64,000 nt of DNA from an uncultured Gemmatimonadales bacterium (GCA_963815515.1 CAWFGP010000001.1:999848-1063847), one strand, 5' to 3'. Positions 3,161 through 39,031 are shown, numbered from the stretch's first letter. Numbers and translations: made by a program. The notes: generated by a model from the letters alone, not told the origin.

Positions 3161-3252
3161 AAACCCTGAAACGAGAGTGTGATGGGATCGCGCCCACGGC
3201 ATGTGGTGCGCGGACGGGAAGCTAGTCGGGACGGGCGGGTGGCGGCAACGGC

Positions 3253-3288
3253 GGGTGGGCCGGGTGGGTGGGTGCGTGGGTGGGTGGG
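3253..3288 (+). other. G-quadruplex-forming tract (eight GGG runs, mostly 1-nt loops)
   Basis: The sequence reads GGGtGGGccGGGtGGGtGGGtgcgtGGGtGGGtGGG. Three more GGG runs occur from 3228. The tract is intergenic, 93-128 nt upstream of the pepA start on the template strand. Confidence 0.6.
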
Positions 3289-3372
3289 CGATGGCGGTAG
3301 CACGTTCCCCTGAGCGAAGCGAAGGGGGCACGACCAGACGCATGCTCCCTTCGCTGCCTCGAGAGGTGAGCC

Positions 3373-8674: not shown

Positions 8675-10393
8675 ATGCTTCGTTCCGCCGGTCGCAGGCG
8701 ACATATCCTTACCGTCGCCCTGGAGGACTATTTCCAGGTCTCGCCCTTCAAGGGCCTGATCGAGCCGGCGCAGTGGTCCCGCTTCGAGCGCCGCCTAGAG
8801 ATCGGTACGGCCCGCACGCTCGACCTCCTCGACGAGTACGACATCCGGGCCACGTTCTTCGTGCTCGGATGGGTGGCCGATGTCGTGCCTGAGCTCGTCC
8901 GACGCGTCTCGGAGCGCGGTCACGAAGTCGCGAGTCGAGGCTACTATCACCGCGGCGTGCGCGAGATGGGATCCGAATTTCGCGACGACTCGGTGCGCGC
9001 CCGCGAGAGCCTCGAGCGGGCGAGCGGTCAGCGCGTGATCGGCTACCGGATGGCGGAGCGCTGGCTCGCGCCGTCCGAGCTTCACGCGCTCGACATCCTC
9101 GCCGACGAAGGCTACCTCTACGACTCCAGCATCAAGCCGGCGTGGCGGGCCTACGCCCGCGAGCCCTGGCGCCGGTTCCTGCACCGGCACGGGACGGGCG
9201 CCGGTGGCATCTGGGAGGTTCCTCTCTCCTCCGTGAAGCTGCTGGGACTCGATGTGCCTGTCGCCGGCGGCAATCACTTCCGTCAGTTCCCCCACGGTCT
9301 GGTAACGCGCGCGGTCGCGCGGTGGGACCGCACCTGCGACGCTCCGTTCGTCATGTATTTCCACACCTGGGAGCTGGACCCCGACCAGCCGCGCATCGGC
9401 ACCGCCTCGCCGCTCGCTCGAGTCCGACAATATCGGAACCTCGACCGGATGGAAGGGATGCTCCGGGACTACTTCGCCACCTACGCCTTCGAGGGCATCG
9501 CGGACCGGCTCGAGCTCGCCACGGCCCCCCTGGCGGCCCGGCAGGTCGCTCCCGTGGAGACGAGTCGGGCCTTCCCGCGGCCCGCGCCCGTCGTCGAGCC
9601 CGCCCCGGTGAGCGTCGTCGTCCCTTGCTTCAACGAGGCCCAGGCTCTCCCCTACCTGGCCAATACGCTGACCCTGATGCAACGTGAGCTCGCCGACCGC
9701 TACGCCTTCCGATTCATTTTTATCGACGATGGGAGCAAGGACGGCACCTGGGAGGCGCTTCAGCGGCTGTTTGGAGGTCGTCCGGATTGCAGCACGCTCC
9801 GGCACGAGGCGAACCGGGGGATCAGCGCGGCGATTCGTACCGGCCTGCAAGCGGCCGCCACCGAGACGGTGTGCTCCATCGACTGTGACTGCTCCTACGA
9901 TCCACACGATCTCGCGGACATGATTCCCCTGCTCGGCGACGGTGTAGACCTGGTGACGGCGTCACCCTACCACCCACTGGGGTCGGTCAAGAACGTACGA
10001 GGATGGCGGCTCCTCCTGTCAAAGTCCGCTTCCAGCATGTACCGGCTGGTACTGCGGCAGAAGCTTCACACGTACACCAGCTGCTTTCGGGTCTATCGCC
10101 GCAGCGCGGTGCTTGGCCTCGATCTGCGCGACCCGGGATACCTCGGCCTCGTCGAGTTGGTCGGGAAGCTCGACCTCGGTGGGCGGACGGTGCTCGAGCA
10201 TCCGGCCAGATTGGAAGCCCGCCTGCTCGGCCGCTCGAAGATGAAGATCGTCAGCAACATCGCCCGCCACCTCGGACAGCTCGTCCGTTTCGCGACGCTG
10301 CGACTCTTCGGACCCAGACCCGTGACCCGCAGGCCGGGCCTGGAGCGATTCTCGACCCGCGCGCGTGTCACTCTGGATCGGCCGCGCCAGTAG
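8675..10393 (+). CDS. Fusion protein: polysaccharide deacetylase (NodB + DUF3473-like, PEP-CTERM-locus type) / GT2 polyprenyl-phosphate glycosyltransferase-like domain
   Basis: The N-terminal half has ILTVALEDYFQV...ATFFVLGWVA...GHEVASRGYYH...YFHTWELDPDQP. The C-terminal half has VSVVVPCFNE...FIDDGSKDGT...DCDCSYDP...LLGRSKMK (DPM1/ArnC-like). It is one uninterrupted frame. I prefer ATG 8675 (MLRSAGRRRHILTV); the track start at 8486 adds 63 non-native-looking codons. Confidence 0.85.
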   Translation: MLRSAGRRRHILTVALEDYFQVSPFKGLIEPAQWSRFERRLEIGTARTLDLLDEYDIRATFFVLGWVADVVPELVRRVSERGHEVASRGYYHRGVREMGSEFRDDSVRARESLERASGQRVIGYRMAERWLAPSELHALDILADEGYLYDSSIKPAWRAYAREPWRRFLHRHGTGAGGIWEVPLSSVKLLGLDVPVAGGNHFRQFPHGLVTRAVARWDRTCDAPFVMYFHTWELDPDQPRIGTASPLARVRQYRNLDRMEGMLRDYFATYAFEGIADRLELATAPLAARQVAPVETSRAFPRPAPVVEPAPVSVVVPCFNEAQALPYLANTLTLMQRELADRYAFRFIFIDDGSKDGTWEALQRLFGGRPDCSTLRHEANRGISAAIRTGLQAAATETVCSIDCDCSYDPHDLADMIPLLGDGVDLVTASPYHPLGSVKNVRGWRLLLSKSASSMYRLVLRQKLHTYTSCFRVYRRSAVLGLDLRDPGYLGLVELVGKLDLGGRTVLEHPARLEARLLGRSKMKIVSNIARHLGQLVRFATLRLFGPRPVTRRPGLERFSTRARVTLDRPRQ

Positions 10394-10450
10394 CTGGCGC
10401 AGCCACCGGCTCCGCGGCCCTTCGAGCACCGCCAGTCACCTCGAGATTGC

Positions 10451-10933
10451 ATGCCCTTCCTGACCCGTCCGCTGCTTATCGCCGCGCTGCTGAATCCCGC
10501 ATGCCTGGTATCGGCCGCCCAGTCACAGAATGTGGGGCACAGGTTCGGGTTGGAGCTGCACGTGGGCTACGGTGGTGGCGGCCTCCACGATGACGGGCTC
10601 GTCGGCGGCGGCCTCGCGTACGGACTCGGCCGCCGATTGGAAGCCCTCGGCTTTCTGACTGCGGTGGCCGCGCGTCCCGAGGGAAGGACCGTGTTCGGTG
10701 GACTCGGGCTCCGGCTCAGCCCCTGGACGGGAATCGTTCGGCCTTACCTGGGCGTCGGACCTTTGCTCACCATGCGCGCCTACGACGAGGGGCACCTCGG
10801 CACGTTCGGGAGTATCGGCCTGGAGGCCGCGCTTGAGCGTCGTACCAGGCGATGGCGAGTGTTTGCAGAGGGCCGGGCGATGTATGGCGGGGGCAGCTGG
10901 AGCCAAGTCGTGGCCGGTGTGCGGTACCACTGA
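10451..10933 (+). CDS. Small outer-membrane beta-barrel-like protein (signal peptide, Gly-rich)
   Basis: MPFLTRPLLIAALLNPACLVSAAQSQ is a signal peptide. The rest has alternating Gly/aromatic strands and a C-terminal VVAGVRYH typical of OM barrels. Confidence 0.55.
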   Translation: MPFLTRPLLIAALLNPACLVSAAQSQNVGHRFGLELHVGYGGGGLHDDGLVGGGLAYGLGRRLEALGFLTAVAARPEGRTVFGGLGLRLSPWTGIVRPYLGVGPLLTMRAYDEGHLGTFGSIGLEAALERRTRRWRVFAEGRAMYGGGSWSQVVAGVRYH

Positions 10934-11395
10934 GCAGCCCTGATCGCACGCGCGGGCGGTGCCCGACGTTCGGCATGCTCCAGGCGTTCCATTGTGGCAC
11001 ATGAGCCGTAGCCTGATACCGAAGTCTGGGCGGACATGCTCTGCCTCGATGACGGCCCCAGCGAAGCCGTAGCCCGATGCCGAGCGTGAGGTACGTCCGT
11101 CTCAGATGCGATAGGAAACTCCTGCCCATCTGCCCATGGAGCAGAGCGATATGATTGGATGCGGCCTTAAGCGGGCCCATCCAGTGCCACATACGCGATC
11201 TTCTCCAAGCGTCCAAAGCGGGGGTACCTGAGGAGGCTGAGGTGAGTCCCTGTCACTCTCAGCGCCAAGGGTTGCTCCCGTAAGCTGCGCCTTTTCCATG
11301 GCTCGCTCCCACTGTTGCTGCAGATTCCCCAGCCCGGGCAATGCGGGCCCCGATACCGTATCCCGCAGTGCTTGGCGGGCAGACAGCGAGGCTGC

Positions 11396-12760
11396 ATGAT
11401 CTCCGCACGCGCAGCCAACCCGCGCGAATGTCGAGTAGGCATCGTGGGCGGCGGCATTTTGGGTATGAGCCTGGCGCTACGACTGCAAGGCGATGGATGC
11501 GTGGTCACCTTGATCGAAGGCGCCCCGGCTCCCGGCGGCCTGACGCAGAGCCAAGCGATCGGCGGCTACACCTGGGACCGCTTCTATCACGTGATCCTCC
11601 AGTCCGACCAGCACCTGCTCGCGCTGCTGGACGAGCTCGACCTCACCCAGGCGCTGCGTTGGGGTACCACGCGGACCGGGTTCTATATCGATGGACACCT
11701 GCACTCACTGTCGAACAGCCTGGAGTTCCTGCGGTTTCCCGCCCTCTCGCTGCTCGACAAGGTGCGTCTCGCCGCGACGGTGCTGTATGCCTCACGACTG
11801 CAAGACTGGAGGCCACTCGAGCATGTCCCAGTGGATGAGTGGCTGCGACGGCTCTCGGGAGGTCGGACCTTCGACCGGATCTGGCTTCCGCTGCTCAAGA
11901 GCAAGCTCGGCCAGAATTATGAGCGCACCAGCGCGTCCTTTATCTGGGCGACGATTGCGCGGATGTACGCCGCGCGCCGTTCGGGGCTGAAGCGCGAGAT
12001 GTTCGGTTACGTCGACGGTGGCTACGACCGCGTGCTGCGGCAGTTCCGCGAACAGTTGGATGCACGAGGTGTTGAAACGCTGTGCGGACGCCCCGCAGTT
12101 TCGATCAACGACGCAGGAGACCGTGTCCAGGTCGAGCTCGCCGGGGGCGAGATGCGCTCGTTCGACCGGGTGGTGCTGACGGTTCCCTGTCCCCGGGTCC
12201 AGGCGCTCTGCCCCCAGCTCTCACCGGAAGAGCGGACGCGCCTGGGGAAGGTCGTTTACCAGGGAATCATCTGCGCCTCGATCCTGCTGCGGAAGCCGCT
12301 GGCCGGTTTCTACATCACGAACATCACCGACTCGTGGGTGCCCTTCACCGCCGTGATCGAAATGACCTCCCTGGTCGACCGCGAACGGTTCGGAGGACAC
12401 GCACTGGTGTACCTACCTCGCTACCTGGTTCAGGATGACCCGATGTGGCACGAGGCGGACGATTCGATCCAGGAGCGGTTTGTTTCGGCGCTCGAGCGTA
12501 TGTACCCGAACTTTCGGCGCGAGGACGTGCTGACTTTCCAGGTAGCCCGGGCCAAGGAAATGCTTGCCGTCACGACGCTCAACTACTCGGACGAAGCCCT
12601 GCCACGCCTCCGTACCTCGCTGCCCAATGTCTTCGTCGTCAATTCGGCGCAGATCGTGAACGGCACGCTGAACGTGAACGAGACCGTCGCACTTGCCAAC
12701 CTGAGCGCCCGGGAACTCCGACCGCTGCTGTCGTCGCCGGTGGTCGGAGTGGCGGCCTAG
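11396..12760 (+). CDS. FAD/NAD(P)-binding oxidoreductase (amine-oxidase / phytoene-desaturase-like)
   Basis: The dinucleotide fold is RVGIVGGGILGMSLALRL...LIEGAPAPGG. I prefer ATG 11396. Confidence 0.75.
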   Translation: MISARAANPRECRVGIVGGGILGMSLALRLQGDGCVVTLIEGAPAPGGLTQSQAIGGYTWDRFYHVILQSDQHLLALLDELDLTQALRWGTTRTGFYIDGHLHSLSNSLEFLRFPALSLLDKVRLAATVLYASRLQDWRPLEHVPVDEWLRRLSGGRTFDRIWLPLLKSKLGQNYERTSASFIWATIARMYAARRSGLKREMFGYVDGGYDRVLRQFREQLDARGVETLCGRPAVSINDAGDRVQVELAGGEMRSFDRVVLTVPCPRVQALCPQLSPEERTRLGKVVYQGIICASILLRKPLAGFYITNITDSWVPFTAVIEMTSLVDRERFGGHALVYLPRYLVQDDPMWHEADDSIQERFVSALERMYPNFRREDVLTFQVARAKEMLAVTTLNYSDEALPRLRTSLPNVFVVNSAQIVNGTLNVNETVALANLSARELRPLLSSPVVGVAA

Positions 12761-12761
12761 C

Positions 12762-13748
12762 ATGCGCGGGATGACGCCCGCGCAGCCCCGCGCCAGCCTC
12801 TCGCTCGATCTGGACGACCTCTGGTCCTACCTGCGGACGCGCGGCGATCCGTCCTGGGCGAGTCGCCCGTCCTATTTGGCCGCCTTCATCCCTCGCGCGC
12901 TCGACGTTCTGGATCGCCTCGGGATCAGGATCACCTTCTTCGTGGTGGGCTTCGATGCCACCCGAGCGGAGAACCAGCCGCACCTCCGTGCCATTGCGGC
13001 GCGAGGGCACGAGATCGGGAATCACTCCTTCGCCCACGAATGCTGGCTTCACCGTTACTCCCCCGCCGAGCTCGAGGCGGATATCGGGAAGGCCGAAGAG
13101 GCGATCCGAGCAGCCACCGGACAGCAGCCCACCGGATTTCGCGGGCCCGGCTTCAGCTGGTCGGCGGAGCTCTTCGAGGTGCTGGCTCGGCGGCACTACC
13201 TCTACGACGCCTCGACCTTTCCGACATTTCTCGGGCCGCTCGCGAGACTCTACTTTCTCGCCTCGACAGACCTGTCTGCCGAGGAGCGAGCGCAGCGCGC
13301 TTCCCTCTTCGGGTCCTTCCGGGACGGCTTCCGCCCCAATGAGCCGTACCGGTGGGAGCTGCAGGAAGACCGGACGCTGCTGGAGATCCCGGTGACTACG
13401 GTGCCGGTGATCAAGACCCCGTTTCACATGAGCTACCTGCTGTACCTCAGCCGGTTTTCCACCGGGCTGATGCGCGCATACCTGCACGGCGCGTTGGCTG
13501 CCTGCCGGGCCACCCGGCTCGAGCCAAGCTTCCTGCTGCACCCGCTCGACCTGCTCGGCGCCGACCAGGTTCCCCAACTCTCCTTCTTTCCGGGGATGGA
13601 CCTGATCGGGGCTCGCAAGGAGAAGATGTTTGCCGAGGTGCTGGGCGTGCTCGCCTCGCGCTTCGAGCTCGTGACCACGGGGGAGCAGGCAAGCGGCCTC
13701 CTGGCCGGCGGTCGGCTGGCGCAGCGCGCCCCAGTCCTGGCGACGTGA
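12762..13748 (+). CDS. Polysaccharide deacetylase (NodB homology) family protein
   Basis: LSLDLDDLW...GIRITFFVVG...GHEIGNHSFAHE...FRGPGFSWS. Confidence 0.8.
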   Translation: MRGMTPAQPRASLSLDLDDLWSYLRTRGDPSWASRPSYLAAFIPRALDVLDRLGIRITFFVVGFDATRAENQPHLRAIAARGHEIGNHSFAHECWLHRYSPAELEADIGKAEEAIRAATGQQPTGFRGPGFSWSAELFEVLARRHYLYDASTFPTFLGPLARLYFLASTDLSAEERAQRASLFGSFRDGFRPNEPYRWELQEDRTLLEIPVTTVPVIKTPFHMSYLLYLSRFSTGLMRAYLHGALAACRATRLEPSFLLHPLDLLGADQVPQLSFFPGMDLIGARKEKMFAEVLGVLASRFELVTTGEQASGLLAGGRLAQRAPVLAT

Positions 13749-13795
13749 TCGATGCATCCGAATCTGGGCAGCACCCATACCGAAGGGAACGGATC

Positions 13796-14818
13796 ATGAC
13801 GAGGCCTCCGAGGGCACTAGTGGTCGGGGCAGCGGGCAACATCGGCGGCCCGCTCGTGACGTACCTCCGCTCCATGGGCTATGCCGTGCTGGAAGTGGAT
13901 ATCAGACCGGGCTGGCGTCCAGATTACCTCATGGCGGACATCACCCATCCGCTGGACCTGCTGCCGGCGTTCGACTGGTCACCCGACGTGGTCTTTCTCC
14001 TCGCGGCGTCGGTCGGACGCATGACCTGCGAGCAGGCCGGCTCGCTCGCCATCTCCACGAACCTCGCCGGCGTCAACAATGTCCTCCAGCTCTGCAAGCG
14101 GACGGCAAGCGTCTGTGTGTACTTCTCCACCTCCGAGGTCTACGGGCCTTCGTGCGATCTGATGGACGATGCCGCGACCGTTCCGCAGCCCAACAATCGT
14201 TACGGGCTGTCGAAATGGCTCGCCGAGCAGCTCGTCGAGTACGAAGTGCGGACGGGCAAGCTTCAGGCGGTCACGCTGCGGCCCTGCATGATCTATCACG
14301 AGAACGAGGATGTGGGAGAGCACCGCTCCGCGATGATCCGGTTCGCCTCGAATCTCGCCCGGGGGAAGCCGGTCCAGGTCCATCGCGGCAGTGCCCGAGG
14401 CTGGCTGCATGTTTCGGATGCCGTCCGCGCCGTCGAGGCCGCCGGGCACGTGGCGCACCATGCCACGATCAACATCGGCCACCCGGATCTGGTGCCGATG
14501 GCGCAGCTGGCGGAGCTCATCCGCAGCGAGCTCGGGGCCGATCCCTCGCTGGTTCGGATGGCAGCGCTGCCCCCTCAGATGACCCTGATCAAACGCCCCA
14601 CCCTCGAGCGCCAACGCGCACTGTTGGGCATTGAGCCTCTGGTTTCGCTGGCGGAGGGGGTGCGCCGCGTGTGTGCCGTGCAACGCCGGATGGTCGCCGG
14701 CGTGACTGCGAGCAACGGCCATGGGATGCCTGAATCCTTCGCCACCCCGGAGCCGAGTGTCGTGGGGCTGCCGGTCGATCCACTGTCGCCTCTGCGTCTC
14801 CGTTCGGCGGCGATGTGA
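13796..14818 (+). CDS. NAD-dependent epimerase/dehydratase (extended SDR)
   Basis: ALVVGAAGNIGGPLVTYL (GxxGxxG) and YGLSKWLAEQL (YxxxK). The track start at 13352 overlaps the previous gene out of frame, so I use ATG 13796. Confidence 0.85.
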   Translation: MTRPPRALVVGAAGNIGGPLVTYLRSMGYAVLEVDIRPGWRPDYLMADITHPLDLLPAFDWSPDVVFLLAASVGRMTCEQAGSLAISTNLAGVNNVLQLCKRTASVCVYFSTSEVYGPSCDLMDDAATVPQPNNRYGLSKWLAEQLVEYEVRTGKLQAVTLRPCMIYHENEDVGEHRSAMIRFASNLARGKPVQVHRGSARGWLHVSDAVRAVEAAGHVAHHATINIGHPDLVPMAQLAELIRSELGADPSLVRMAALPPQMTLIKRPTLERQRALLGIEPLVSLAEGVRRVCAVQRRMVAGVTASNGHGMPESFATPEPSVVGLPVDPLSPLRLRSAAM

Positions 14819-15876
14819 CGGTCTCCCCGGGCGTTCCAGTGGGCTCAGCCGGGGTGGTTGGGCGTGAGGTTGTGACGGCCGGAGCGCGGGAACCTGCCCG
14901 AGAAGGCGTCTGCGTGCCCCTCGAGCCGCAGAAGCGCCCGTTGACACTCCTTCCGGCAGTGTGCTGCGCTTGCGGCGACGAGGGTGCGGAACCTCTGGCG
15001 ATCGTAGACGACTTTGACTACGCCACCAGCCCCGACTCATTCCTGGCATTGCGATGCAGCGGATGCGGGTCGGTCTATATGAGCCCGGCGCCGGCCGACC
15101 ACGAACAGAAACGGATCTATCCGCCGGGTTACTTTGCGGCGGCGGCGTCCCCCCCAGGAAGCTTTCGGGAATCGCTCAGCCGGCGACGGAAGGCAGCGCT
15201 TCTGAGGCAGTGGTCTCGTGCGGTTGGTCCGCACGCCTGCATCCTCGACGTGGGATGCGGAGCGGGGCTCGACCTTGCCTTCCTTCAGGCTCTTGGCGGC
15301 GGTCAATGGCGGCTTGATGGCGTGGAGCCCGTTGAGTCCGCGGTCCAAATGGCGCGCATGGCAGGGCTCACGGTTCACCACGGGAACCTGGAGGATCGGG
15401 AGTTGCCTTCTGGCAGCTACGATCTGGCGCTCCTGGTCCACACCCTCGAGCGTGTTCCCGACCCCGATGTGACTCTCGGTGCGCTGAGCCGAGTCCTTGC
15501 GCCCGGCGGACGCGCGGTCGTCGTACTGCACAACCTCGACTCTCCCAGCTTCCGTATTTTTCAGGGTCGTCATTGGGGCGGATACGACATGCCTCGACAG
15601 CGCCGGCTGTTCAGCCCTGACGCGCTGCGCCGGCTGGCCGAGCGCTCGGATCTGGAGTTGGTGTCGCTGTCGACGGTAGCGGACGGCGGCACGTGGTTAC
15701 GCTCCTTCCGGCGCCTGTTCCAGGACTGGGGCGCGCGCCCCTGGCTCGTCCAACGCTTCGACCATCGGTCCCTCCTGGCCGCGGCGGTCTTCGGTGCGTG
15801 GGATGCGGTTCATCGGCTCCGTGGCAAAGGCGCTCTGAGGGTCGCGATCGTGGGTCGCCGGGAGATGCCCGGGTGA
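14815..15876 (+). CDS. Class I SAM-dependent methyltransferase with N-terminal Cys-pair (zinc-ribbon-like)
   Basis: Motif I is ILDVGCGAGLD, post-I is LDGVEP, followed by VLAPGGRAVV. The N-terminus has CCACG...CSGCG. The GTG start overlaps the upstream TGA. Confidence 0.8.
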   Translation: MTVSPGVPVGSAGVVGREVVTAGAREPAREGVCVPLEPQKRPLTLLPAVCCACGDEGAEPLAIVDDFDYATSPDSFLALRCSGCGSVYMSPAPADHEQKRIYPPGYFAAAASPPGSFRESLSRRRKAALLRQWSRAVGPHACILDVGCGAGLDLAFLQALGGGQWRLDGVEPVESAVQMARMAGLTVHHGNLEDRELPSGSYDLALLVHTLERVPDPDVTLGALSRVLAPGGRAVVVLHNLDSPSFRIFQGRHWGGYDMPRQRRLFSPDALRRLAERSDLELVSLSTVADGGTWLRSFRRLFQDWGARPWLVQRFDHRSLLAAAVFGAWDAVHRLRGKGALRVAIVGRREMPG

Positions 15877-17198
15877 TCCGCGCCGCCAAGCCGCCGGTGG
15901 CCGTTGTGGGAGGGGGACTGGCGGGGCTAGTGGCCGCCCACGAACTTCGCCGGCGCGGGATCCCGGTGATGGTATTCGAGGCAGGCAAACAGGTCGCCGG
16001 CCTGGCAACCAGCTTCCGCGACGCCGACGGGTTCGTGTGCGATTTCGGCGCCCATTTCATCACCAACCGACTCGCCGCCGCGCTCGGAATCGGCGCGTAC
16101 TGCCGGGATGTGCACCACTACGGCGAAACGGTCTTTCACGCCGGCCGCAGTGACAGCTATCCTTTTGGCTTGCTGCGATCCCCGCGCTACATGTTCAGCG
16201 CGGCTGCCAGCCGCCTTGCCCGCCGGTCCGACTCCGCGCCGACTTCCGCGGCCGACTGGTACCGCCGCCAATACGGACCCAAGCTGGCGGACGAGATCGC
16301 CATTCCGCTCATCGAGGCCTGGTCCGGCGTACCTGCCGACGACCTCGCGCCGAGCGTCATCGCGCCTCAGCTCGAGCGAGGCACGGCCCACGTCCTCCGA
16401 CTCAAGCTGGCGAGCCGTGTTACGGGCCGGGCCGTCGCGAACGGGTATTCACGGGAGAAGCCGGAGAGTGCGCACGTTTGGCATGTGTACCCGGAAGGGA
16501 GTCTCGGCTTCCTCTGTGAGCGCCTGGCGGAAGGCCTGAACGGGACGGTCCGACTGGAATCGCCGGTGGAGGCGATACTCACGGAGAACGGTCGGGCCGT
16601 CGGGGTGAAGGTGCACGGACGGGTATGGGAGGCTTCTGCGGTCGTGAGTACGGCGCCGGTCCATATCCTGGCGAAGCTGGTTCAAGGTACCGACGCGGTG
16701 CGACACCTGGCGAAATTCCGCTACCGCCCGATGGTCCTCGTCAACATGCGGTTCGAGGGTCGTTGGCTGCTGCCGGACGTGGTCACCTGGGTGCCCGACC
16801 GGGAGGTGCCCTTCTTCCGTCTCACCGAGGCGACCTGGTCCATGCCGTGGCTGGCGCCACCCGGGAAGACCACCATCAACGCGGATATCGGTTGTGCGGT
16901 AGGAGATCGGATCTGGAGCATGTCGGAGGAGCAGCTCGGCGAATGGTGCCTGGAACACCTGCAAGCGATCATCCCGACTGCTCGCCAGCGCTATCTGGGA
17001 TGCCGCGTCATGCGGACGCCGATCGCACACCCGGTGTTCCTGAGGGAGTACGAACAGGAGCGTCTGGCGTTTGAGAGCTCAATGCCCGTGGAAGGGCTGT
17101 TCAGTATTGGCCGAAACGGGGAATTCGCCCACATCCTGATGGAGGATGTGTATTGGCGCACTCTCCGGCGGATGCAGCAGTTGGTCTCCACGCTGTAA
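15873..17198 (+). CDS. FAD-dependent oxidoreductase, possibly UDP-galactopyranose-mutase-like flavoenzyme
   Basis: VAVVGGGLAGLVAAHEL...VFEAGKQVAG, with C-terminal GRNGEFAHILMED. GTG 15873 overlaps the upstream stop (GTGA), which implies translational coupling. The track start at 15693 is an out-of-context extension. Confidence 0.75.
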   Translation: MIRAAKPPVAVVGGGLAGLVAAHELRRRGIPVMVFEAGKQVAGLATSFRDADGFVCDFGAHFITNRLAAALGIGAYCRDVHHYGETVFHAGRSDSYPFGLLRSPRYMFSAAASRLARRSDSAPTSAADWYRRQYGPKLADEIAIPLIEAWSGVPADDLAPSVIAPQLERGTAHVLRLKLASRVTGRAVANGYSREKPESAHVWHVYPEGSLGFLCERLAEGLNGTVRLESPVEAILTENGRAVGVKVHGRVWEASAVVSTAPVHILAKLVQGTDAVRHLAKFRYRPMVLVNMRFEGRWLLPDVVTWVPDREVPFFRLTEATWSMPWLAPPGKTTINADIGCAVGDRIWSMSEEQLGEWCLEHLQAIIPTARQRYLGCRVMRTPIAHPVFLREYEQERLAFESSMPVEGLFSIGRNGEFAHILMEDVYWRTLRRMQQLVSTL

Positions 17199-17295
17199 TG
17201 CGTGCCTGCCCGGCGATTACCCTCGACCGGAGTGTCAACCAACCGACTTCCGGGTATCCGGAGGCCGTGGGCGGAGCTGCCCGGGAGACCCCGAG

Positions 17296-18570
17296 GTGAG
17301 CCGTCCCGCTTGGAAGAGCGCAGCGGCATTCGGGGTGTTTGGATTGGCTATCGCGTTCGCATTGGCGCGAGTGACCCTCCATGCCGCTCCGGGCGGTGTC
17401 AGGCTTGGCGCCGCGTGGGTGATGATCGACTTCTACGACGGCGCCTACTTTCCTGTCAAGGCATTCCTGGCCCAATGGACTCACGACACTGCTGGCGCCG
17501 GACCAGGTCCGGGAACGGGTGTCCCGGGCTGGCCGTATTTACCTATCAACTTGCTCCTGCACCTGCCGTTCACGCTGCTCCAGCCGCGAGCGGCAGGGGC
17601 GGTCTACTTCTGTCTTACAGCGCTTCTCACGCTCTCGCTCGCGGTCGTCGTTTTGCGACTGGCGCGATATCCCGTGGAACCATGGCGCGTGGCTTTGGTG
17701 GCAGGCCTGGTTCTCCTGTCCCGTCCGGGTCACTGGACTCTGCTCTTGGGACAGCGCAGCATCCTGCTCACGCTTCTTGTGTACATCGCCCTCCGCCGCG
17801 CATGCGATGCGCCGCTGCTGAGCGGCATCGCCCTCGCCGCCGCAATCCACAAGCCAACGTTTGGACTTCCTGTAGCCGCTCTCATGCTCGCCAGCGGTTA
17901 TGGGCGGGCCGCTGCTGGCATCGGACTCCTGCTCTCCGCAGCGGTCAACATCCCACTCTTTGGAATTCTTGCGGAGCGAGCCGGCGGCGTGCAGCCTTTG
18001 GTCGCTCGCCTGCTGACCGGGTACGACAGCTGGCAAGGGCTTAGTTTCATCAACGCCGCAACCAGCCATAATCGTATCGACGCGGTCGCTCTCGTGAGCC
18101 GGTTCCTGGGTTACTCCCTGTCGAGCACGAGTCAGCTGCTCCTAGCTCTCGCACTTCTGGGGACGGCGAGCGTGGCGATCCACCGGCTTCCAGCATCGGC
18201 GCCGGCCTGGGAGGATGTGAAGATCGGGATCATCTGCCTGACTACCCTGCTGGTCGGGTACCACATGGGCTACGACCTCGTTCTGCTCACCGCCCCCCTG
18301 CTCGTCTTCGTTGCCCACGGTTTGGCAGGCGTAGGGCCCGGACTGAGGCGCGTATGTCTCACGCTCTATCTCTTGCCAGCCTTCAACTGGGTCACTACCG
18401 ACGCCGTGGTGGAGGCGTGGCACCCGACGCATTCGGTCTGGCTCGTCATCGCGTCAGTGAACGGCCTCTGCATTATGGGGTTGTTCGTCGCGTATGTGCT
18501 CGTGGCCCTTCGGTCGCAAGGGTTGGCGTCGCGGGAGCAATTCCTGTCAGCAGAGCGAGTGCCGGTCTAA
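17296..18570 (+). CDS. Polytopic membrane glycosyltransferase, GT-C fold (DUF2029-like), paralog of 5432-6700
   Basis: WVMIDFY first-loop motif, collinear with the paralog throughout. GTG 17296 is preceded by GGAGA and gives an N-terminus the same length as the paralog. Confidence 0.7.
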   Translation: MSRPAWKSAAAFGVFGLAIAFALARVTLHAAPGGVRLGAAWVMIDFYDGAYFPVKAFLAQWTHDTAGAGPGPGTGVPGWPYLPINLLLHLPFTLLQPRAAGAVYFCLTALLTLSLAVVVLRLARYPVEPWRVALVAGLVLLSRPGHWTLLLGQRSILLTLLVYIALRRACDAPLLSGIALAAAIHKPTFGLPVAALMLASGYGRAAAGIGLLLSAAVNIPLFGILAERAGGVQPLVARLLTGYDSWQGLSFINAATSHNRIDAVALVSRFLGYSLSSTSQLLLALALLGTASVAIHRLPASAPAWEDVKIGIICLTTLLVGYHMGYDLVLLTAPLLVFVAHGLAGVGPGLRRVCLTLYLLPAFNWVTTDAVVEAWHPTHSVWLVIASVNGLCIMGLFVAYVLVALRSQGLASREQFLSAERVPV

Positions 18571-18642
18571 TGCGCGAGTCGGCACAGGGCGCTCTCGTCC
18601 CGGCGACCTTCTAACCAGTGATCGCACTGCGCTGCTCGGGCA

Positions 18643-20247
18643 ATGGGGCACTCGCGAATATCGGCCCGAGAGGGGAGCACTAGCGTTGTGTTTGCCTTAC
18701 AGCATCGAGCCACCGAGGCTGCCTCTCCTGCCGATAGCCCGACCCCTGGACTCTGCCGGCAGCGGAATTCGTCCGGTTCGGCCGTGCTGTTCTTCAGCCT
18801 TTTCATGGCGGCCGGTCTACGCCTCTGGCACCTGGGTCACCAGTCGCTCTGGGCCGATGAATTTGCCTCGCTGCTTACCGCCCTTCCATCCATGGCGGAG
18901 ATTCCGGCACAGGCCCTTCGGAATGACGCCTTCGAGCCTCCGCTCTACTTTTGGCTGCTTCATAGCGTCATCCGCGTAGCGGGCTCATCAGAATGGGCAT
19001 TGCGACTCCTCTCAGCGTTCGCAGGAACGGCGACGATACCTGTCGTATGGCTGCTCATTCGTAATGTCACCCAACGCCCGCGGATCGCAGACACGGCCGC
19101 GCTGCTGCTGGCAAGCAACCCGCTGCACGTTTGGTACTCGCAGGAGGCGCGCCCCTACGCCCTTCTGGTGTTGCTTGGCTCAACCGCTCTTCTCTGCCTT
19201 GTTCGGGCGCTGGACCGGGGTACCGGATGGTGGATCGGCTTCGTGGTCCTCAGCGCCGCGGCGATCCTCACTCATGTGACCGGTGTGGTGTATCCCCTCA
19301 TTGGTGGCCTCTGGGCTCTCCACGCCCGCGGCGCGAAGGTGCTCGGGCGGCTCGCATTCGCCGCGACGGGGACCGTCGCCCTGATCCTGCCCTTTCTCAT
19401 CATGTTGGCCAGCGCGGTCGGTCACGCCAAGGGGACCGGTTCACCCCAGCGCCCGTTCACCGGGCTGGAACTTCCCTACAGTGTGTTCACGTTCCTGGCC
19501 GGATACTCCTTCGGCCCGCCCATCCGCGAGCTCCAGGACCTCGGCTGGAGGGTGGCGCTTGCGAATCACCCGGCGCAGACAGTGCTCGTCGGCGTGACGA
19601 TCCTGTGGCTGATCGCCCTCCTGCTTCGGAATCGTCGACTGCCGATCATCTCGGTGGGCCTGCTTTTCGTAGTACCGCTCGCGGCGGCCACTGCGGGTTC
19701 GCTGCTGACGACTAAGGCGTACAACGTGCGCTACGTGCTCCCGGCCCTCGTCGGCGGCTTGGCACTGGCCGCGATTGCCCTGGAGCGACTCACCCATCAG
19801 GGTCATCGGCTGGCACTCGTCGTGATGCTTGGACTCTTCCTCTGGTCCGACGCACAGTGGTTCTGGTCTCCCTCCTACTGGAAGGACGACAGTCGGGCCG
19901 CTGCGGCATGCCTGGCGACGACCCTGCCTCCTGGCTCCACGGTCGCTGTCGCCCCGTCCTACATGCGTCCGGTAGTCGCCCACTACCTGCCCGGGGCGTC
20001 TGGAATACGAGCCGTGGGAGTCAATGACGTTGCCGGTCTCGAGCGGACCGATGCGAACGCGCTGGTCATCACCCGCGCGTTTCACGTCGCGGCCCCGGTG
20101 ACCGAGCTGGTGCGCAGCCTTGAAGCCCGGTCGGGGCGAAGCGCGTCACTCGGTCGAGTGGTCGGGTACCGACTCTACTTCGTTCTGGAAAGCGCTCGAG
20201 CAGGAGCTGGTGCGGAGTGCCAGGTCTCAGGCCCCAGCACTCGCTAG
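18643..20247 (+). CDS. GT-C membrane glycosyltransferase, ArnT/PMT_2 (GT39/GT83-like) family
   Basis: LRLWHLGHQSLWADEFASL...PPLYFWLLH...LRLLSAFAGTATIPVVWLL...SNPLHVWYSQEARPYAL is the typical N-terminal loop of dolichyl/undecaprenyl-phosphate-sugar dependent transferases. It has more than 10 TM segments and a C-terminal soluble domain. Confidence 0.75.
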   Translation: MGHSRISAREGSTSVVFALQHRATEAASPADSPTPGLCRQRNSSGSAVLFFSLFMAAGLRLWHLGHQSLWADEFASLLTALPSMAEIPAQALRNDAFEPPLYFWLLHSVIRVAGSSEWALRLLSAFAGTATIPVVWLLIRNVTQRPRIADTAALLLASNPLHVWYSQEARPYALLVLLGSTALLCLVRALDRGTGWWIGFVVLSAAAILTHVTGVVYPLIGGLWALHARGAKVLGRLAFAATGTVALILPFLIMLASAVGHAKGTGSPQRPFTGLELPYSVFTFLAGYSFGPPIRELQDLGWRVALANHPAQTVLVGVTILWLIALLLRNRRLPIISVGLLFVVPLAAATAGSLLTTKAYNVRYVLPALVGGLALAAIALERLTHQGHRLALVVMLGLFLWSDAQWFWSPSYWKDDSRAAAACLATTLPPGSTVAVAPSYMRPVVAHYLPGASGIRAVGVNDVAGLERTDANALVITRAFHVAAPVTELVRSLEARSGRSASLGRVVGYRLYFVLESARAGAGAECQVSGPSTR

Positions 20248-20699: not shown

Positions 20700-20870
20700 A
20701 TCAAACTTGCACAGCAAATTGTTACAATTGACTCTGCTAAAGTAGGTAATACACTTGTGCAATTGCGTTTACAAAACAGCCCACATACCAATCAACCTGG
20801 ACTGTCAAAAAACCTATGCTTTCGCAATTTTGGCGTGCATGCCGATATTCTTGAAGCCCAAGGGTGGACC
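20700..20870 (+). promoter_or_regulatory. AT-rich control region with CAATTG-core palindromes upstream of the lipoprotein gene
   Basis: This is a local GC trough in an otherwise GC-rich window. Perfect CAATTG occurs at 20725-20730 and 20760-20765 (the latter within GCAATTGC). Imperfect copies are GCAAATTG at 20714 and GCAATTTT at 20824. There is also an inverted TTGCAC / GTGCAA pair. Confidence 0.35.
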
Positions 20871-20918
20871 GGGAGGAAGCGCGCGGTTGGGCCCCTATCT
20901 AGATCGAAGGACCGAACC

Positions 20919-23123
20919 ATGACGTACACCTTCAAGCTTGCCCGGCGCCTGGCTCGATTCCGAATGGCGTCTGTGATCACCGGAGCCCTGTTGGCCGCAG
21001 CGTGTGCGGGCGACGAGGGCCTCAATGGCCCCGCGGCCGCGGGCGGCGATCCGGGCACCTCCGTGCTTACCATCCTACCCGACTCCACCACGGTCCGCAC
21101 CAGCGATACGGTGCAGTTCTCGGTTGGGGCCCTCGCCGAGGGCTCGGCGCTGTCCTTTTCGAAGGGGAGCGGCAAGGGCAAGGGCCGCGGCAAACCCCAA
21201 CCTGCCGGCATGACGGTCAGCCCTGGAACTGCGACGTTGATCTCGACCGGGGTGCAGCGCTTCGTGGCGATGGAGACCATGACAGACGGCTCCAGTTGGC
21301 AGCCCAGGGTCACCTGGACCGCCACCGGGGGAACCATCGACAGCACAGGCAAGTACGTCGCTGCGTCGACCCCCGGTGAATACCGTGTGGTGGCGGTCGC
21401 CGCAGACGGAATGGCCGATACCGCTACGGCAACGGTCGTCGCCGATACTCCGGTCCTGGCTCGGCTGGTGCTGAGCCCGGCGGTGGATACAGTGGCGACG
21501 GGCGGAAGGCAGCAGTTCACGGTCGTGGCCACCGCAGGCGATGGCTCTAGCATCGCAGTCGTTCCGACCTATACGGCCACGGGCGGTACCATCACCGCCG
21601 CGGGCGTCTACACTGCCGGCCAGACCGCGGGCACGTTCCGGGTCATTGCGCTCGACCCCGTCAGCAACCTGGCCGATACCGCAGCGGTGACAGTGACCGC
21701 CACGCTTCCGACGGTGCAGTCCGTCGTGCTGACGCCAGGGAGCGCCTCGCTCACGACTGGGGCCAAGCAGCAGTTCAACGCCTCGGCGAAGATGAGCGAC
21801 GGGACCACAAAAGCGATCAGCGCATCGTATTCCGCCACCGGCGGTTCGATCGCGGCCTCGGGTGAGTACACGGCGGGTAGCACCGCCGGGACGTTCCGGG
21901 TCATTGCGCTCGATCCCACCAGCAACCTGGCCGATACCGCAGCGGTGACAGTGACCGCCACGCTTCCGACGGTGCAGTCCGTCGTGCTGACGCCAGGGAG
22001 CGCCTCGCTCACGACTGGGGCCAAGCAGCAGTTCAACGCCTCGGCGAAGATGAGCGACGGGACCACAAAAGCGATCAGCGCATCGTATTCCGCCACCGGC
22101 GGTTCGATCGCGGCCTCGGGTGAGTACACGGCGGGTAGCACCGCCGGGACCTATCGCGTGATCGCGGCGGAATCCGGCGGCAAGGCCGACACGGCCGCTG
22201 TGACAATCACCACGATAACGCCACCACCCCCGTCGACCTCGGTGTGTGATGGGGCCCTGCGTACAGTGGCCGTCTCAACGGCGGGCGAGCTCACCACCGC
22301 AATCGGCAGCTCCCAGCCCGGCGACTGCATCCTGCTCGCGGCTGGCACGTACACGACGGGTACCATCCGGCAGAGCCGTGGCGGGACCGCGGCGAACCCG
22401 GTGACGGTGCGTGGGGCCGGGGGCTCGAGCATCGTGACCATGGGTGGCGGGTCCTGGCTTCCCCAAGCCCCGTATCTCCGGTTCGAGAACTTCCGTTTGA
22501 CGAACACCTTCTACGGGTTCTACTGCGGGGAAAGCGGAGCACCGGGCTGTCCATACGCGGTGTTCGACTCGATGGAAGTGGACCATGCCGCCCAGTCTGG
22601 CATCGCGCTGGAGAACGGCTCCAGCTTCTCCCAAGTTCTGCGCTCCAGGGTCCATGACACCGGAGTCAGCAGGGCAGTCTATGGCGAAGGGGTCTACGTC
22701 GGCGGATACGGAACTCCCACGACCGACGTGAAGGTGCTGAACAACACCTTCTACAATACCGGCGCCGAGGCCATCGATAACTCGGCCGGGGCGGACCGGA
22801 TGACTGCGACCGGCAACGTAATCGACGGCACCGGGACGGCGTTTATCGATGGCGGGACCGTGAGCCTGGTGGGCCTGCGGGGCAACAATGTCGTCTTCAG
22901 CAACAACACCCTCACCAAGGGCTCTCCGCACGGCATCGTGGTCTGGTCCGGTTCCGGCACCGTGCTCCGGGGCAACACGATTCATCTGTTCAACATCGAC
23001 AACTATCCCGCCCCGAAGGGGATCGACGCCTCTCGGGCATCGGGAACACAGGTCGGCTGCGACAACATCGTGACCGACGTTCCAAGCGGCGGCCTGGCCT
23101 ACACCGGGAGCTGCGCCCCATGA
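20919..23123 (+). CDS. Lipoprotein with five Big_2-like Ig domains and C-terminal right-handed beta-helix (pectate-lyase-fold) domain
   Basis: MTYTFKLARRLARFRMASVITGALLAAAC is a signal plus lipobox. Repeated units follow the pattern LxPxxxxLxxGxxxQFxA...YxxTGGxIxxxGxYTAG. The C-terminus has repeated GNxIxG / NNTxxxG turns. I prefer ATG 20919 with GAAGGA upstream. Confidence 0.8.
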   Translation: MTYTFKLARRLARFRMASVITGALLAAACAGDEGLNGPAAAGGDPGTSVLTILPDSTTVRTSDTVQFSVGALAEGSALSFSKGSGKGKGRGKPQPAGMTVSPGTATLISTGVQRFVAMETMTDGSSWQPRVTWTATGGTIDSTGKYVAASTPGEYRVVAVAADGMADTATATVVADTPVLARLVLSPAVDTVATGGRQQFTVVATAGDGSSIAVVPTYTATGGTITAAGVYTAGQTAGTFRVIALDPVSNLADTAAVTVTATLPTVQSVVLTPGSASLTTGAKQQFNASAKMSDGTTKAISASYSATGGSIAASGEYTAGSTAGTFRVIALDPTSNLADTAAVTVTATLPTVQSVVLTPGSASLTTGAKQQFNASAKMSDGTTKAISASYSATGGSIAASGEYTAGSTAGTYRVIAAESGGKADTAAVTITTITPPPPSTSVCDGALRTVAVSTAGELTTAIGSSQPGDCILLAAGTYTTGTIRQSRGGTAANPVTVRGAGGSSIVTMGGGSWLPQAPYLRFENFRLTNTFYGFYCGESGAPGCPYAVFDSMEVDHAAQSGIALENGSSFSQVLRSRVHDTGVSRAVYGEGVYVGGYGTPTTDVKVLNNTFYNTGAEAIDNSAGADRMTATGNVIDGTGTAFIDGGTVSLVGLRGNNVVFSNNTLTKGSPHGIVVWSGSGTVLRGNTIHLFNIDNYPAPKGIDASRASGTQVGCDNIVTDVPSGGLAYTGSCAP
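21633..22148 (+). repeat. Near-perfect tandem duplication, 2 x 258 bp (one Big_2 domain unit, 86 codons)
   Basis: 21633-21890 and 21891-22148 are identical except for 3 substitutions clustered in one hexamer (gaccccgtc versus gatcccacc). The duplication is in frame. Confidence 0.95.
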
Positions 23124-39026: not shown

Positions 39027-39031
39027 GCCGG

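Follow-up and report, generated by a model that had tools for sequence, protein, structure and literature searches.

Introduction

Periplasmic glycosylation from polyprenyl-phosphate sugars, as in the Arn and Gtr systems and in mycobacterial arabinan, shapes antibiotic resistance, serotype and envelope integrity, and known donor-tailoring enzymes are few. In the Arn pathway, lipid A aminoarabinose depends on the family 2 glycosyltransferase (GT2) ArnC, the NodB deformylase ArnD, the flippase ArnE/F and the GT-C glycosyltransferase ArnT. Amino-sugar precedents are Francisella FlmF2/NaxD/FlmK (lipid A galactosamine), Bordetella LgmABC and mycobacterial PpgS/Rv3779 (galactosamine on arabinogalactan). 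They follow one logic, in which a GT2 makes a polyprenyl-phosphate-linked N-acetylhexosamine, a deacetylase converts it to the hexosamine and a GT-C enzyme transfers the amino sugar outside the cytoplasm; NaxD is a YdjC-type and not a NodB-type deacetylase. Three-component periplasmic glycosylation is also established, with GtrB/GtrA/Gtr* and the C. youngae O1/O2 set PPPRS-MATE-GT136 as examples, the latter with ORF13, an epimerase of the short-chain dehydrogenase/reductase (SDR) type, and an auxiliary epimerase of this kind determines the choice of lipid-linked sugar (Kelly et al. 2024, PMC11127046). Here we analysed a cluster of nine genes, G1 to G9, at positions 8675-20247 of a 64,000-nucleotide stretch of DNA from an uncultured Gemmatimonadales bacterium (GCA_963815515.1 CAWFGP010000001.1:999848-1063847), hereafter the window, and compared it with these systems.

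We consider it probable that the cluster encodes an Arn-like extracytoplasmic glycosylation pathway of the three-component type, built around a conserved core of three genes. The folds and gene associations reported below are observed, and from them we infer all of the enzyme activities. A sequence-only reading of the same DNA had proposed a single nine-gene operon making a modified lipid-linked sugar. The observation behind it is largely real, and its interpretation is partly supported. It was right in outline, and its overall logic, in which a lipid-linked sugar would be built and trimmed on the cytoplasmic side and used by GT-C enzymes outside, holds on the GT2 alignment, the fold of G9 and the transmembrane (TM) predictions; it was wrong in its enzymological analogy and in treating the cluster as one fixed unit.

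Results

A conserved three-gene core with exchangeable partners

Nine open reading frames (ORFs) were called within 8675-20247, all on the plus strand and co-directional, as the sequence-only reading had stated, and Pfam and NCBIfam back the family assignments of eight of the nine, the exception being G2. Across 81 related loci, the conserved core consists of three of these genes: the fusion gene G1 (8675..10393), the flavoenzyme gene G3 (11396..12760) and the NodB-type deacetylase gene G4 (12762..13748). A scan with a G3 alignment, using one genome per species, gave at least 578 relatives, and the best 80 loci, all from metagenome-assembled genomes (MAGs), were analysed by tblastn with the window proteins, ORF clustering and Pfam searches on cluster representatives. 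The locus architectures are approximate because the ORF caller missed or mis-started some genes, and counts were taken from tblastn where possible. These loci belong mostly to Gemmatimonadota and otherwise to Planctomycetota, Acidobacteriota (Pyrinomonadaceae), Myxococcota, Gammaproteobacteria, Verrucomicrobia and Methylomirabilis; homologues of the cluster proteins come overwhelmingly from Gemmatimonadales MAGs. G4 adjoins G3 in 76 of the 78 loci with room for it, and of 67 loci, 52 have a G1-type fusion no more than 2.6 kb upstream and 57 have one at any position.

The genes that follow the core fall into variants. In variant A, to which the window belongs, a tail of SDR, methyltransferase, second flavoenzyme and PMT_2 genes follows G4 (10 of 63 loci), usually with GT87, FMN reductase and metallophosphoesterase genes near. 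About ten species-level genomes keep the order G3-G4-SDR-(methyltransferase)-FAD enzyme-PMT_2 at 40-77% amino-acid identity, and one locus, L002 (61% identity), has the full order of the window except G2. The gene order of the cluster is thus not due to chance; across the loci it is the core that is conserved, and the tail is kept in a minority of them. In the majority variant B, an AsnB-like amidotransferase gene and a UDP-ManNAc-dehydrogenase-like nucleotide-diphosphate (NDP)-sugar dehydrogenase gene follow G4 (41 of 63 loci), together with a methyltransferase or an Acyl_transf_3/SGNH O-acyltransferase, polytopic proteins of the PMT_2 or DUF6798 type and sometimes a UbiA-family protein. Five loci (L019, L024, L027, L028 and L073) carry the AsnB-like and dehydrogenase genes, then an Acyl_transf_3 plus AlgX/SGNH O-acyltransferase of ~900 amino acids and a polytopic protein of ~520 amino acids, with a UbiA-family protein next in four of the five. 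This arrangement hints that there is a second lipid-linked donor, or that the same glycan is O-acylated. Some loci outside Gemmatimonadota place genes for a DegT aminotransferase, a Gfo/Idh/MocA oxidoreductase and a hexapeptide acetyltransferase, which resemble WbpE, WbpB and WbpD, between the fusion and G3, and some have WecB upstream.

The Wbp-like, WecB, NDP-sugar dehydrogenase and AsnB-like neighbours indicate that the substrates belong to the N-acetylated (di)amino sugars or to the uronic acids. GT-C-like polytopic proteins of the PMT_2 and DUF6798 types accompany the core in other variants and phyla, suggesting that GT-C enzymes are the usual end users. Taken together, the distribution of core and variants does not bear out a fixed nine-gene operon; the nine genes are one lineage's combination of the core with an exchangeable tailoring and transfer module.

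The NodB-GT2 fusion protein G1 and the deacetylase G4

G1 joins a NodB/DUF3473 deacetylase-like domain (amino acids ~12-276) to a GT2 domain of the dolichol-phosphate-mannose synthase (DPMS)/ArnC/GtrB type (amino acids ~311-540), with Pfam matches to Polysacc_deac_1, DUF3473 and Glycos_transf_2. Its start at 8675 is backed by a database protein of 572 amino acids with 100% identity. The best solved relative of the GT2 domain was the P. furiosus DPMS 5mlz (E 1.6e-18, domain residues 11-238), and the next matches in the PDB were ArnC (2e-9) and then GtrB. The alignment with 5mlz takes in ARLLGRSKMK of G1 against IRARGESKLK, an R-x-x-G-x-S-K stretch, and this motif is typical of the polyprenyl-phosphate GT2 subfamily. 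Judged by sequence, G1 therefore supplies the GtrB/DPMS-type polyprenyl-phosphate glycosyltransferase of a three-component system, and we propose that it is a polyprenyl-phosphate amino-sugar synthase. The subfamily is shared with ArnC, but the domain scored 38 bits with the ArnC equivalog model, whose cutoff is 529, and G1 is therefore not an ArnC orthologue; the PpgS model was also among its NCBIfam matches (32 bits, cutoff 370).

The character of the GT2 domain bears directly on a different explanation, according to which the genes would have an accessory role, supplying and tailoring sugar precursors for the exopolysaccharide (EPS) of the adjacent Wzx/Wzy locus. The G1 GT2 domain would then be an ordinary Leloir transferase acting on an undecaprenyl-diphosphate-linked repeat unit, the deacetylases would act on the repeat unit or polymer, the redox and methyl-transfer enzymes would act on nucleotide sugars, and the GT-C proteins would be unrelated polymer-handling enzymes. 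A complete Wzx/Wzy EPS locus is indeed present at 23.3-46.5 kb, the N-terminal domain of G1 is closest to an EPS deacetylase of the XrtA system, TIGR03006, the relatives of G5 act on nucleotide sugars, and GT4, GT2 and initiating-transferase genes lie near the cluster in some relatives. However, the GT2 domain matches DPMS over the whole catalytic and interface region, far better than it matches polymer or repeat-unit GT2s, and the core goes with GT-C genes in varied genomic contexts and phyla rather than with one EPS locus. In addition, the L002 cluster has another neighbourhood on its upstream side, and the EPS locus of the window is on the opposite strand with a deacetylase and methyltransferases of its own. 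We therefore regard a role confined to the neighbouring EPS as unlikely.

The NodB half of G1 also raises the question of whether the cluster is part of an XrtA/PEP-CTERM exosortase EPS system. TIGR03006 was the best NCBIfam model for G1, the L003 orthologue just exceeds its cutoff (278.3 against 276.2 bits), and JGI and NCBI source annotations name G1 homologues 'polysaccharide deacetylase family protein (PEP-CTERM system associated)' or 'XrtA system polysaccharide deacetylase'. The AsnB-like protein of variant B is likewise nearest TIGR03108 among system-specific models. Yet the G1 of the window stays below the TIGR03006 cutoff at 250.5 bits, the AsnB-like protein reaches 445 against a cutoff of 817, and no Exosortase_EpsH was found among the ~45 window ORFs scanned with Pfam, although such a gene may lie in a small or unscanned ORF. 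To our knowledge, described XrtA loci do not feature the GT2 fusion, G3 or the GT-C partners. We accordingly consider membership in an XrtA system very improbable.

No TM segment was predicted in G1 by hydropathy and no signal peptide was evident by eye, and without a TM helix the protein would have to act peripherally at the membrane or with a partner. Across the G1 family, NodB motif 2 reads HE[IV]AS[KR]GYYH in the alignment, the usual second His being replaced by Lys or Arg. G4 (Polysacc_deac_1, 73.6 bits) keeps this motif intact as HEIGNHSFAH and is for this reason the safer candidate for an active deacetylase. It too had no TM segment by hydropathy and no signal peptide evident by eye, which fits ArnD-like trimming, and it is probably translationally coupled to G3, from which it is separated by 1 bp. 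Although its NodB domain is present, the ArnD model PRK15394 gave G4 21 bits against a cutoff of 382. No exact match to G4 turned up in a collection of contigs.

The flavoenzymes G3 and G7

G3 is the most conserved gene of the system, with 56-87% identity across phyla. It encodes an FAD-dependent oxidoreductase of the NF005560/PRK07233 family (457.6 bits against a cutoff of 252, positions 2-428 of 435), whose product name is 'hypothetical protein', with a fold like those of protoporphyrinogen oxidase (PPO), phytoene desaturase (PDS) and monoamine oxidase (MAO). G7 (15873..17198) encodes a second PPO-like FAD oxidoreductase, distant from G3: it scored 104 bits with NF005560 and is not a member, and the two proteins share 26% identity over the N-terminal third only. 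Both match Amino_oxidase (PF01593)/NAD_binding_8 in Pfam (G7 Amino_oxidase 91.9 bits), and neither has a TM segment by hydropathy prediction. The best solved matches of the AlphaFold2 model of G3 (pLDDT 86.6) were PPO/CgoX, plant PDS and MAO/putrescine oxidases at 13-19% identity, and the best PDB match of G7 was the M. xanthus PPO 2ivd (2.1e-14, full length); homologues of G7 in variant A loci are 60-77% identical. Because only the superfamily-level neighbours PPO, PDS and MAO were returned, the fold search with G3 does not separate a sugar from a lipid substrate.

We tentatively suggest, as a possibility held with considerable doubt, that PRK07233-type PPO-like flavoenzymes such as G3 are an unrecognised enzyme class acting on polyprenyl-phosphate-linked sugars. 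G3 may, for instance, act on the lipid-linked amino sugar just after its de-N-acetylation and oxidise it to a keto or imino form. If this reading is true, G1, G3 and G4 would together make up a widespread module that diversifies donors for GT-C glycosylation, found in at least 578 species-level genomes and at least five phyla.

Two amine-oxidase-superfamily flavoenzymes close to a GT2 and a methyltransferase could also suggest a carotenoid or hopanoid glycoside pathway, in which desaturases of the CrtI/CrtN/HpnE type would work with the GT2 as in staphyloxanthin or myxol glycosides. HpnE and CrtI were among the weak NCBIfam matches of both proteins, HpnE being their best named relative. Such a placement would have spoken against the sequence-only reading by that reading's own account, but G3 and G7 lie far below the cutoffs, with 33 and 49 bits for the CrtI family (crtI_fam, cutoff 238) and 106 and 64 bits for HpnE (cutoff 283). 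Moreover, no phytoene or squalene synthase occurs among the recurrent annotated neighbour clusters in 82 loci, and the neighbours that do not vary are sugar deacetylases and GT-C enzymes. We thus regard this pathway as extremely unlikely.

Distant homologues of G3 (26-30% identity, E ~1e-55, near full length) were found on plasmids or replicons of Burkholderia stagnalis, Rhodobacteraceae and Rhizobium tumorigenes. Their clusters, on the B. stagnalis plasmid NZ_CP156687.1 (L083), on CP049031.1 (L084) and on R. tumorigenes NZ_CP117262.1 (L085), share the annotated order UbiA prenyltransferase, FAD-binding oxidoreductase, SDR, epimerase/dehydratase, G3-like protein, GtrA and a polytopic protein of 578-811 amino acids without a Pfam family. 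By annotation and gene order, this arrangement resembles the route through decaprenyl-phosphoryl-ribose (DPPR) synthase, DprE1 and DprE2 to a lipid-linked arabinose donor, accompanied by a protein of a flippase family and a probable transferase. It has the look of a glycosylation system for a lipid-linked pentose, as yet uncharacterised, to which two tailoring enzymes have been added. Since an FAD-binding oxidoreductase gene and an SDR gene, so named by annotation, accompany the G3-like gene in the order that DprE1 and DprE2 would have, G3 would be an extra step and not a DprE substitute. In P. aeruginosa, PsPA7_6250 and 6251, reported as hypothetical and as not needed for the arabinosylation of pilin (bioRxiv 2020.04.19.049825), are candidates for the epimerase/dehydratase and the G3-like flavoenzyme. 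The recurrence of the G3 family in two independent predicted-donor contexts supports a role in polyprenyl-phosphate-sugar chemistry, although it does not tell sugar from lipid modification. A conserved pair of SDR and G3 was also considered and set aside as unsupported, as BLASTP at E 1e-3 detected no similarity between G5 and the proteobacterial epimerase/dehydratase.

The sequence-only reading had likened the flavoenzymes and the SDR of the cluster to DprE1/DprE2, and this analogy failed. DprE1 has a vanillyl-alcohol oxidase (VAO)/FAD_binding_4 fold; G3 and G7 have the PPO/PDS/MAO fold, G5 is an extended SDR, and G3 is coupled to a NodB gene.

The two donor contexts are also relevant to a further alternative, in which G3 and G7 remodel the polyprenyl carrier and not the sugar, saturating or desaturating an isoprene unit to give a dolichol-like carrier for the GT-C enzymes. 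The phosphoesterases, the FMN reductase and, in some relatives, an ene-reductase of the old-yellow-enzyme type would be partners in this remodelling, and the GT2 and NodB steps would be the same as in the glycosylation pathway that we favour. The PPO/PDS fold of both proteins and their closeness to HpnE fit such chemistry, as does the fact that polyprenyl phosphate is what the two chemically different contexts of G3-like genes, GT2 hexosamine and UbiA-type, have in common. FMN reductase and metallophosphoesterase genes recur with variant A, old-yellow-enzyme genes are present in L046 and L086, and clustering puts homologues from L025 and L064 in the same group. Nevertheless, the 76-of-78 pairing of G3 is with a sugar deacetylase gene and not with lipid-synthesis genes, no prenyl-diphosphate synthase was seen in the cluster, and in the bacterial GT-C systems investigated to date the carrier is undecaprenyl or decaprenyl phosphate without modification (PMC11127046). 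Carrier remodelling is therefore an improbable role for these enzymes.

The GT-C glycosyltransferases G8 and G9

Two genes at the end of the cluster encode the putative transferases of the proposed glycosylation pathway. G8 (17146..18570) encodes a polytopic GT87 (DUF2029) glycosyltransferase of the GT-C type (40.4 bits, cutoff 25) with at least seven predicted TM segments by hydropathy; its true start is probably downstream of 17146, and a sequence search of the PDB gave no match. G8 follows G7 directly only in the window and in L002; in L005, L012 and L079 it occupies another place in the locus. G9 (18643..20247) encodes a PMT_2 (GT39/GT83-like) GT-C glycosyltransferase with an ArnT-like fold (64.5 bits, cutoff 26.1). 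Candidate starts lie at 18643, ~18685 and 18892, and a 100% identical database protein was called at 451 amino acids. A Foldseek search with the AlphaFold2 model of G9 (pLDDT 88) returned ArnT (5ezm/5f15) as the best match, with E 3e-8, a TM-score of 0.56 and 16% identity, and further solved matches were AglB, STT3, Pmt4, PglB, DPY19 and Emb. Residues W70, D72 and E73, which form a W-x-D-E motif in the first loop, are invariant in 36 homologues, and the ArnT-specific NCBIfam model was not hit. The fold of G9 and the GT87 score of G8 together provide the GT-C transferase of a three-component system.

One related protein, P0322 (L086, 10001-12802), has 933 amino acids and fuses GT87 to PMT/PMT_2 domains. 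We did not use it as Rosetta-stone evidence that G8 and G9 act together; the contig is full of fragmented genes, and the fusion may thus be an artefact of an assembly frameshift.

G5, G6 and the gene junctions

G5 (13790..14818), which marks variant A, encodes an extended SDR of 342 amino acids of the nucleotide-sugar epimerase/dehydratase type (Epimerase 113 bits). Its best PDB sequence matches were the dTDP-glucose 4,6-dehydratase-related 8w3u (8.5e-23), UDP-glucose 4-epimerase and UXS. It is present 3' of G4 in 10 of 63 loci and co-occurs across loci with G7 rather than with G3. G6 (14815..15876) encodes a class I S-adenosylmethionine-dependent methyltransferase with a Cys-rich N-terminal stretch (Methyltransf_23 77.9 bits), and its homologues in variant A loci show 31-43% identity. 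Neither protein has a TM segment by hydropathy prediction, and on these grounds the two are probably cytoplasmic, as are the NodB proteins G1 and G4 and the flavoenzymes G3 and G7.

The junctions that the sequence-only reading had described as tiny or overlapping are so at G3-G4 (1 bp), G5-G6 and G6-G7, and measurement confirmed GTGA stop/start overlaps (-4) at 14815 and 15873 for the latter two. Spacers of 57 bp, 41 bp and 72 bp separate G1 from G2, G4 from G5 and G8 from G9, respectively. The description fails between G2 and G3, which are 459 bp apart, or 462 bp if G3 starts at the ATG at 11396. This non-coding spacer (10934-11395, 462 bp) may hold an internal promoter upstream of G3, and neither it nor the rest of the cluster gave a meaningful match to Rfam or to a consensus promoter or terminator in the respective scans. 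The interval between G1 and G3 is a rearrangement point in relatives: a reverse-strand metallophosphoesterase gene occupies it in L005 and L007, and in L002 the same place is a gap of ~400 bp with no gene called.

The lineage-specific gene G2

G2 (10451..10933) is an ORF of 160 amino acids with a signal-peptide-like N-terminus and no Pfam or NCBIfam family match. Of 1.84 billion representative proteins only 9 are related to it, and among the related loci it is present only in L001, a contig of the same genome. G2 lies outside the conserved system, and its reading as a small outer-membrane barrel finds no backing in a family match.

Flanking genes of the window

Several genes outside 8675-20247, namely those for GT87b, an FMN reductase, two metallophosphoesterases, a WecB-type 2-epimerase and a beta-helix protein, are functionally linked to the cluster; they recur in related loci. 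Upstream lies GT87b (5432..6700, plus strand), a paralogue of G8 that encodes a polytopic protein (GT87 44.8 bits, cutoff 25) and has homologues in L005, L012, L025, L046 and L064. Between it and G1 are genes, assigned by Pfam and NCBIfam, for an NADPH-dependent FMN reductase (6775-7368) and a YaeI/LpxG-like metallophosphoesterase (7385-8242), both on the minus strand; this divergent pair is found at 57-76% identity in L002, L005, L007, L032, L053, L058 and L060. A WecB-type UDP-GlcNAc 2-epimerase gene (3373-4452, minus strand; Epimerase_2 265 bits, wecB 200.7 against a cutoff of 210) belongs to a cluster present in 18 of 82 loci. A second metallophosphoesterase gene (4485-5306, plus strand; Metallophos), whose product has a weak twin-arginine-signal-like N-terminus (UCR_Fe-S_N 19 bits, below cutoff), lies directly 5' of GT87b and may encode a periplasmic phosphoesterase tied to the system. 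Genes for a peptidase M17, an ABC-F ATPase and ArsC recur upstream of the cluster, at 1664-3343 (minus strand) in the window and in L002, L005, L007 and L086. These recurrent genes place the cluster as an island at a conserved chromosomal position in this Gemmatimonadales lineage and suggest vertical inheritance.

Downstream, a gene at 20757..23123 (plus strand) encodes a protein that looks secreted, is rich in Ser and Thr and contains both Ig-like repeats and a right-handed beta-helix (Beta_helix 45.5 bits). A homologue follows the cluster in L002, L009 and L079, and the protein could be a glycan-processing enzyme or an acceptor. Within the gene, a 258-bp unit occurs twice at 21624-22150 (98% match) and corresponds to a duplicated Ig-like Ser/Thr-rich repeat of 86 amino acids. 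A CRISPR-DR29 hit of Rfam at 21123-21153 was below the gathering score and inside this coding gene, and was taken as chance.

The Wzx/Wzy-type EPS locus that follows (23287-46505, minus strand) contains genes for Wza, Wzc, an initiating Bac_transf enzyme, two methyltransferases, a NodB deacetylase, Wzx, a GT2, Wzy and GT4s, as well as a heparinase II/III-like protein, UDP-glucose dehydrogenase, a PHP protein and a CapK-like AMP-ligase fused to an aminotransferase. At its end, a bi-domain oxidoreductase (zinc alcohol dehydrogenase plus Gfo/Idh/MocA, minus strand) is split into the overlapping ORFs 23624-25489 and 23287-24015. The Gfo/Idh/MocA Rossmann profile begins only at position 78 of the second ORF, and the first has an Arg/Pro-rich tail that looks out of frame; the split is probably a frameshift near 24.0-24.3 kb, due to a pseudogene or a sequencing error. 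Further away, a PAP2-family phosphatase with six TM segments (56752-57486, minus strand) could recycle polyprenyl diphosphate or monophosphate.

Discussion

A model of the pathway

We propose the following route for the glycosylation pathway. The DPMS-type GT2 domain of G1, peripheral at the membrane, would take an N-acetylated amino sugar from its nucleotide-sugar donor and load it onto polyprenyl phosphate, and the WecB-type 2-epimerase gene nearby suggests that the donor is probably derived from UDP-GlcNAc or UDP-ManNAc. G4 would then de-N-acetylate the lipid-linked sugar on the cytoplasmic face, like ArnD and NaxD, possibly helped by the NodB/DUF3473 domain of G1. The product would be modified by G3; we would guess that this enzyme oxidises the freed amine or an adjacent carbon, so that a keto or imino sugar results. 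In variant A only, reduction or epimerisation by G5, methylation by G6 and a second redox step by G7 would follow on the sugar, and the FMN reductase and the metallophosphoesterases may assist these steps. Finally, after flipping by a flippase encoded elsewhere than in the cluster, G8 and G9 would pass the sugar to a periplasmic acceptor, for which lipopolysaccharide or lipid A, the EPS of the adjacent Wzx/Wzy locus and a secreted Ser/Thr-rich protein are candidates.

Several observations weigh against this model. No flippase gene (GtrA, ArnE/F, SMR, MATE or Wzx-like) was found in 3-24 kb of the window; inside the cluster, no ORF of 60-260 amino acids has two or more TM segments and a coding-like GC content at third codon positions, as would fit ArnE or ArnF. 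The sole Wzx gene of the window (37737-39209) belongs to the neighbouring EPS locus. G1 does not have the TM segment or membrane anchor of DPMS, GtrB and ArnC, and its NodB domain, judged by the Lys/Arg at the second metal-binding His, may be non-canonical or lack activity. Proteins related to G3 and G7 by fold act mostly on hydrophobic tetrapyrrole, isoprenoid or amine substrates and not on sugars, and some of the tailoring may precede lipid loading, given that the closest relatives of G5 act on nucleotide sugars. The 462-bp spacer and the rearrangements at that place in relatives speak against a single obligatory transcript, and a targeted literature search found no description of this system.

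The G1-G3-G4 trio is conserved, apparently unstudied and spread over soil phyla that are hard to culture, and distant relatives of G3 lie within putative arabinose-donor-type clusters of culturable Proteobacteria. If the flavoenzyme acts on lipid-linked sugars, this would add a new reaction type to this class of pathways and a bioinformatic marker with which unknown envelope glycans could be found. If it does not, an annotation correction still follows, as the G1 homologues now carry names of PEP-CTERM/XrtA deacetylases.

Comparison with known systems

The XrtA/PEP-CTERM EPS loci include the nearest named relatives of the N-terminal domain of G1 (TIGR03006) and of the variant B AsnB-like gene (TIGR03108). 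They differ from the present cluster in that the window proteins score below the equivalog cutoffs, that no exosortase was found in the ORFs scanned and that the deacetylase is fused here to a DPMS-like GT2. With DprE1/DprE2, the cluster shares the concept that a flavoenzyme and an NAD(P) enzyme tailor a lipid-linked sugar by redox chemistry before GT-C transfer, and distant homologues of G3 lie in the proteobacterial clusters with the UbiA, FAD-binding oxidoreductase, SDR and GtrA genes. In contrast to that pair, G3 and G7 are PF01593/NAD_binding_8 proteins with a PPO-like fold and not VAO-fold (FAD_binding_4) proteins, G5 has 342 amino acids where a classical short SDR has ~250, and the constant partner of G3 is a NodB deacetylase.

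The closest parallels are with Arn (PmrHFIJKLM). As in Arn, there is an inferred DPMS/ArnC-type GT2 for placing an N-acylated amino sugar on polyprenyl phosphate, a NodB-fold enzyme without a predicted TM segment is available for N-acyl removal, and the last gene of the cluster encodes a GT-C enzyme with ArnT as its closest solved structure. Unlike Arn, the ten cluster proteins scanned contain no formyltransferase or aminotransferase domain (ArnA/ArnB), the cluster has no ArnE/F flippase, and its GT2 is fused to a NodB/DUF3473 domain and has no TM helices. The orthologue models for ArnC, ArnD and ArnT were far below cutoff or not hit by cluster proteins, and the cluster adds two PPO-like flavoenzymes, an SDR, a methyltransferase and a GT87 enzyme. 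We know of no fused architecture or flavoenzyme in FlmF2/NaxD/FlmK, LgmABC or PpgS/Rv3779. On these sequence comparisons, the cluster is not orthologous to the Arn, Francisella, Bordetella or mycobacterial systems.

The sequence-only reading had called this an undescribed Arn-like route. The literature search found no described counterpart for the NodB-GT2 fusion, the obligatory PPO-like flavoenzyme, the second flavoenzyme or the paired GT87 and PMT_2 enzymes, and to this extent the word stands; it does not stand for the combination of GT2, deacetylase and GT-C, which has precedents in Arn and Francisella FlmF2/NaxD/FlmK. Compared with the three-component systems, the present cluster does not encode the flippase, has a far larger tailoring set (two NodB domains, two flavoenzymes and a methyltransferase) and draws on two GT-C families. 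Like them, it would pair a synthase for a lipid-monophosphate sugar donor with GT-C transfer and use auxiliary cytoplasmic enzymes to diversify the donor. Given the precedents for joining a GT2, a deacetylase and a GT-C enzyme, the cluster is best seen not as a new principle but as a variant of a known strategy.

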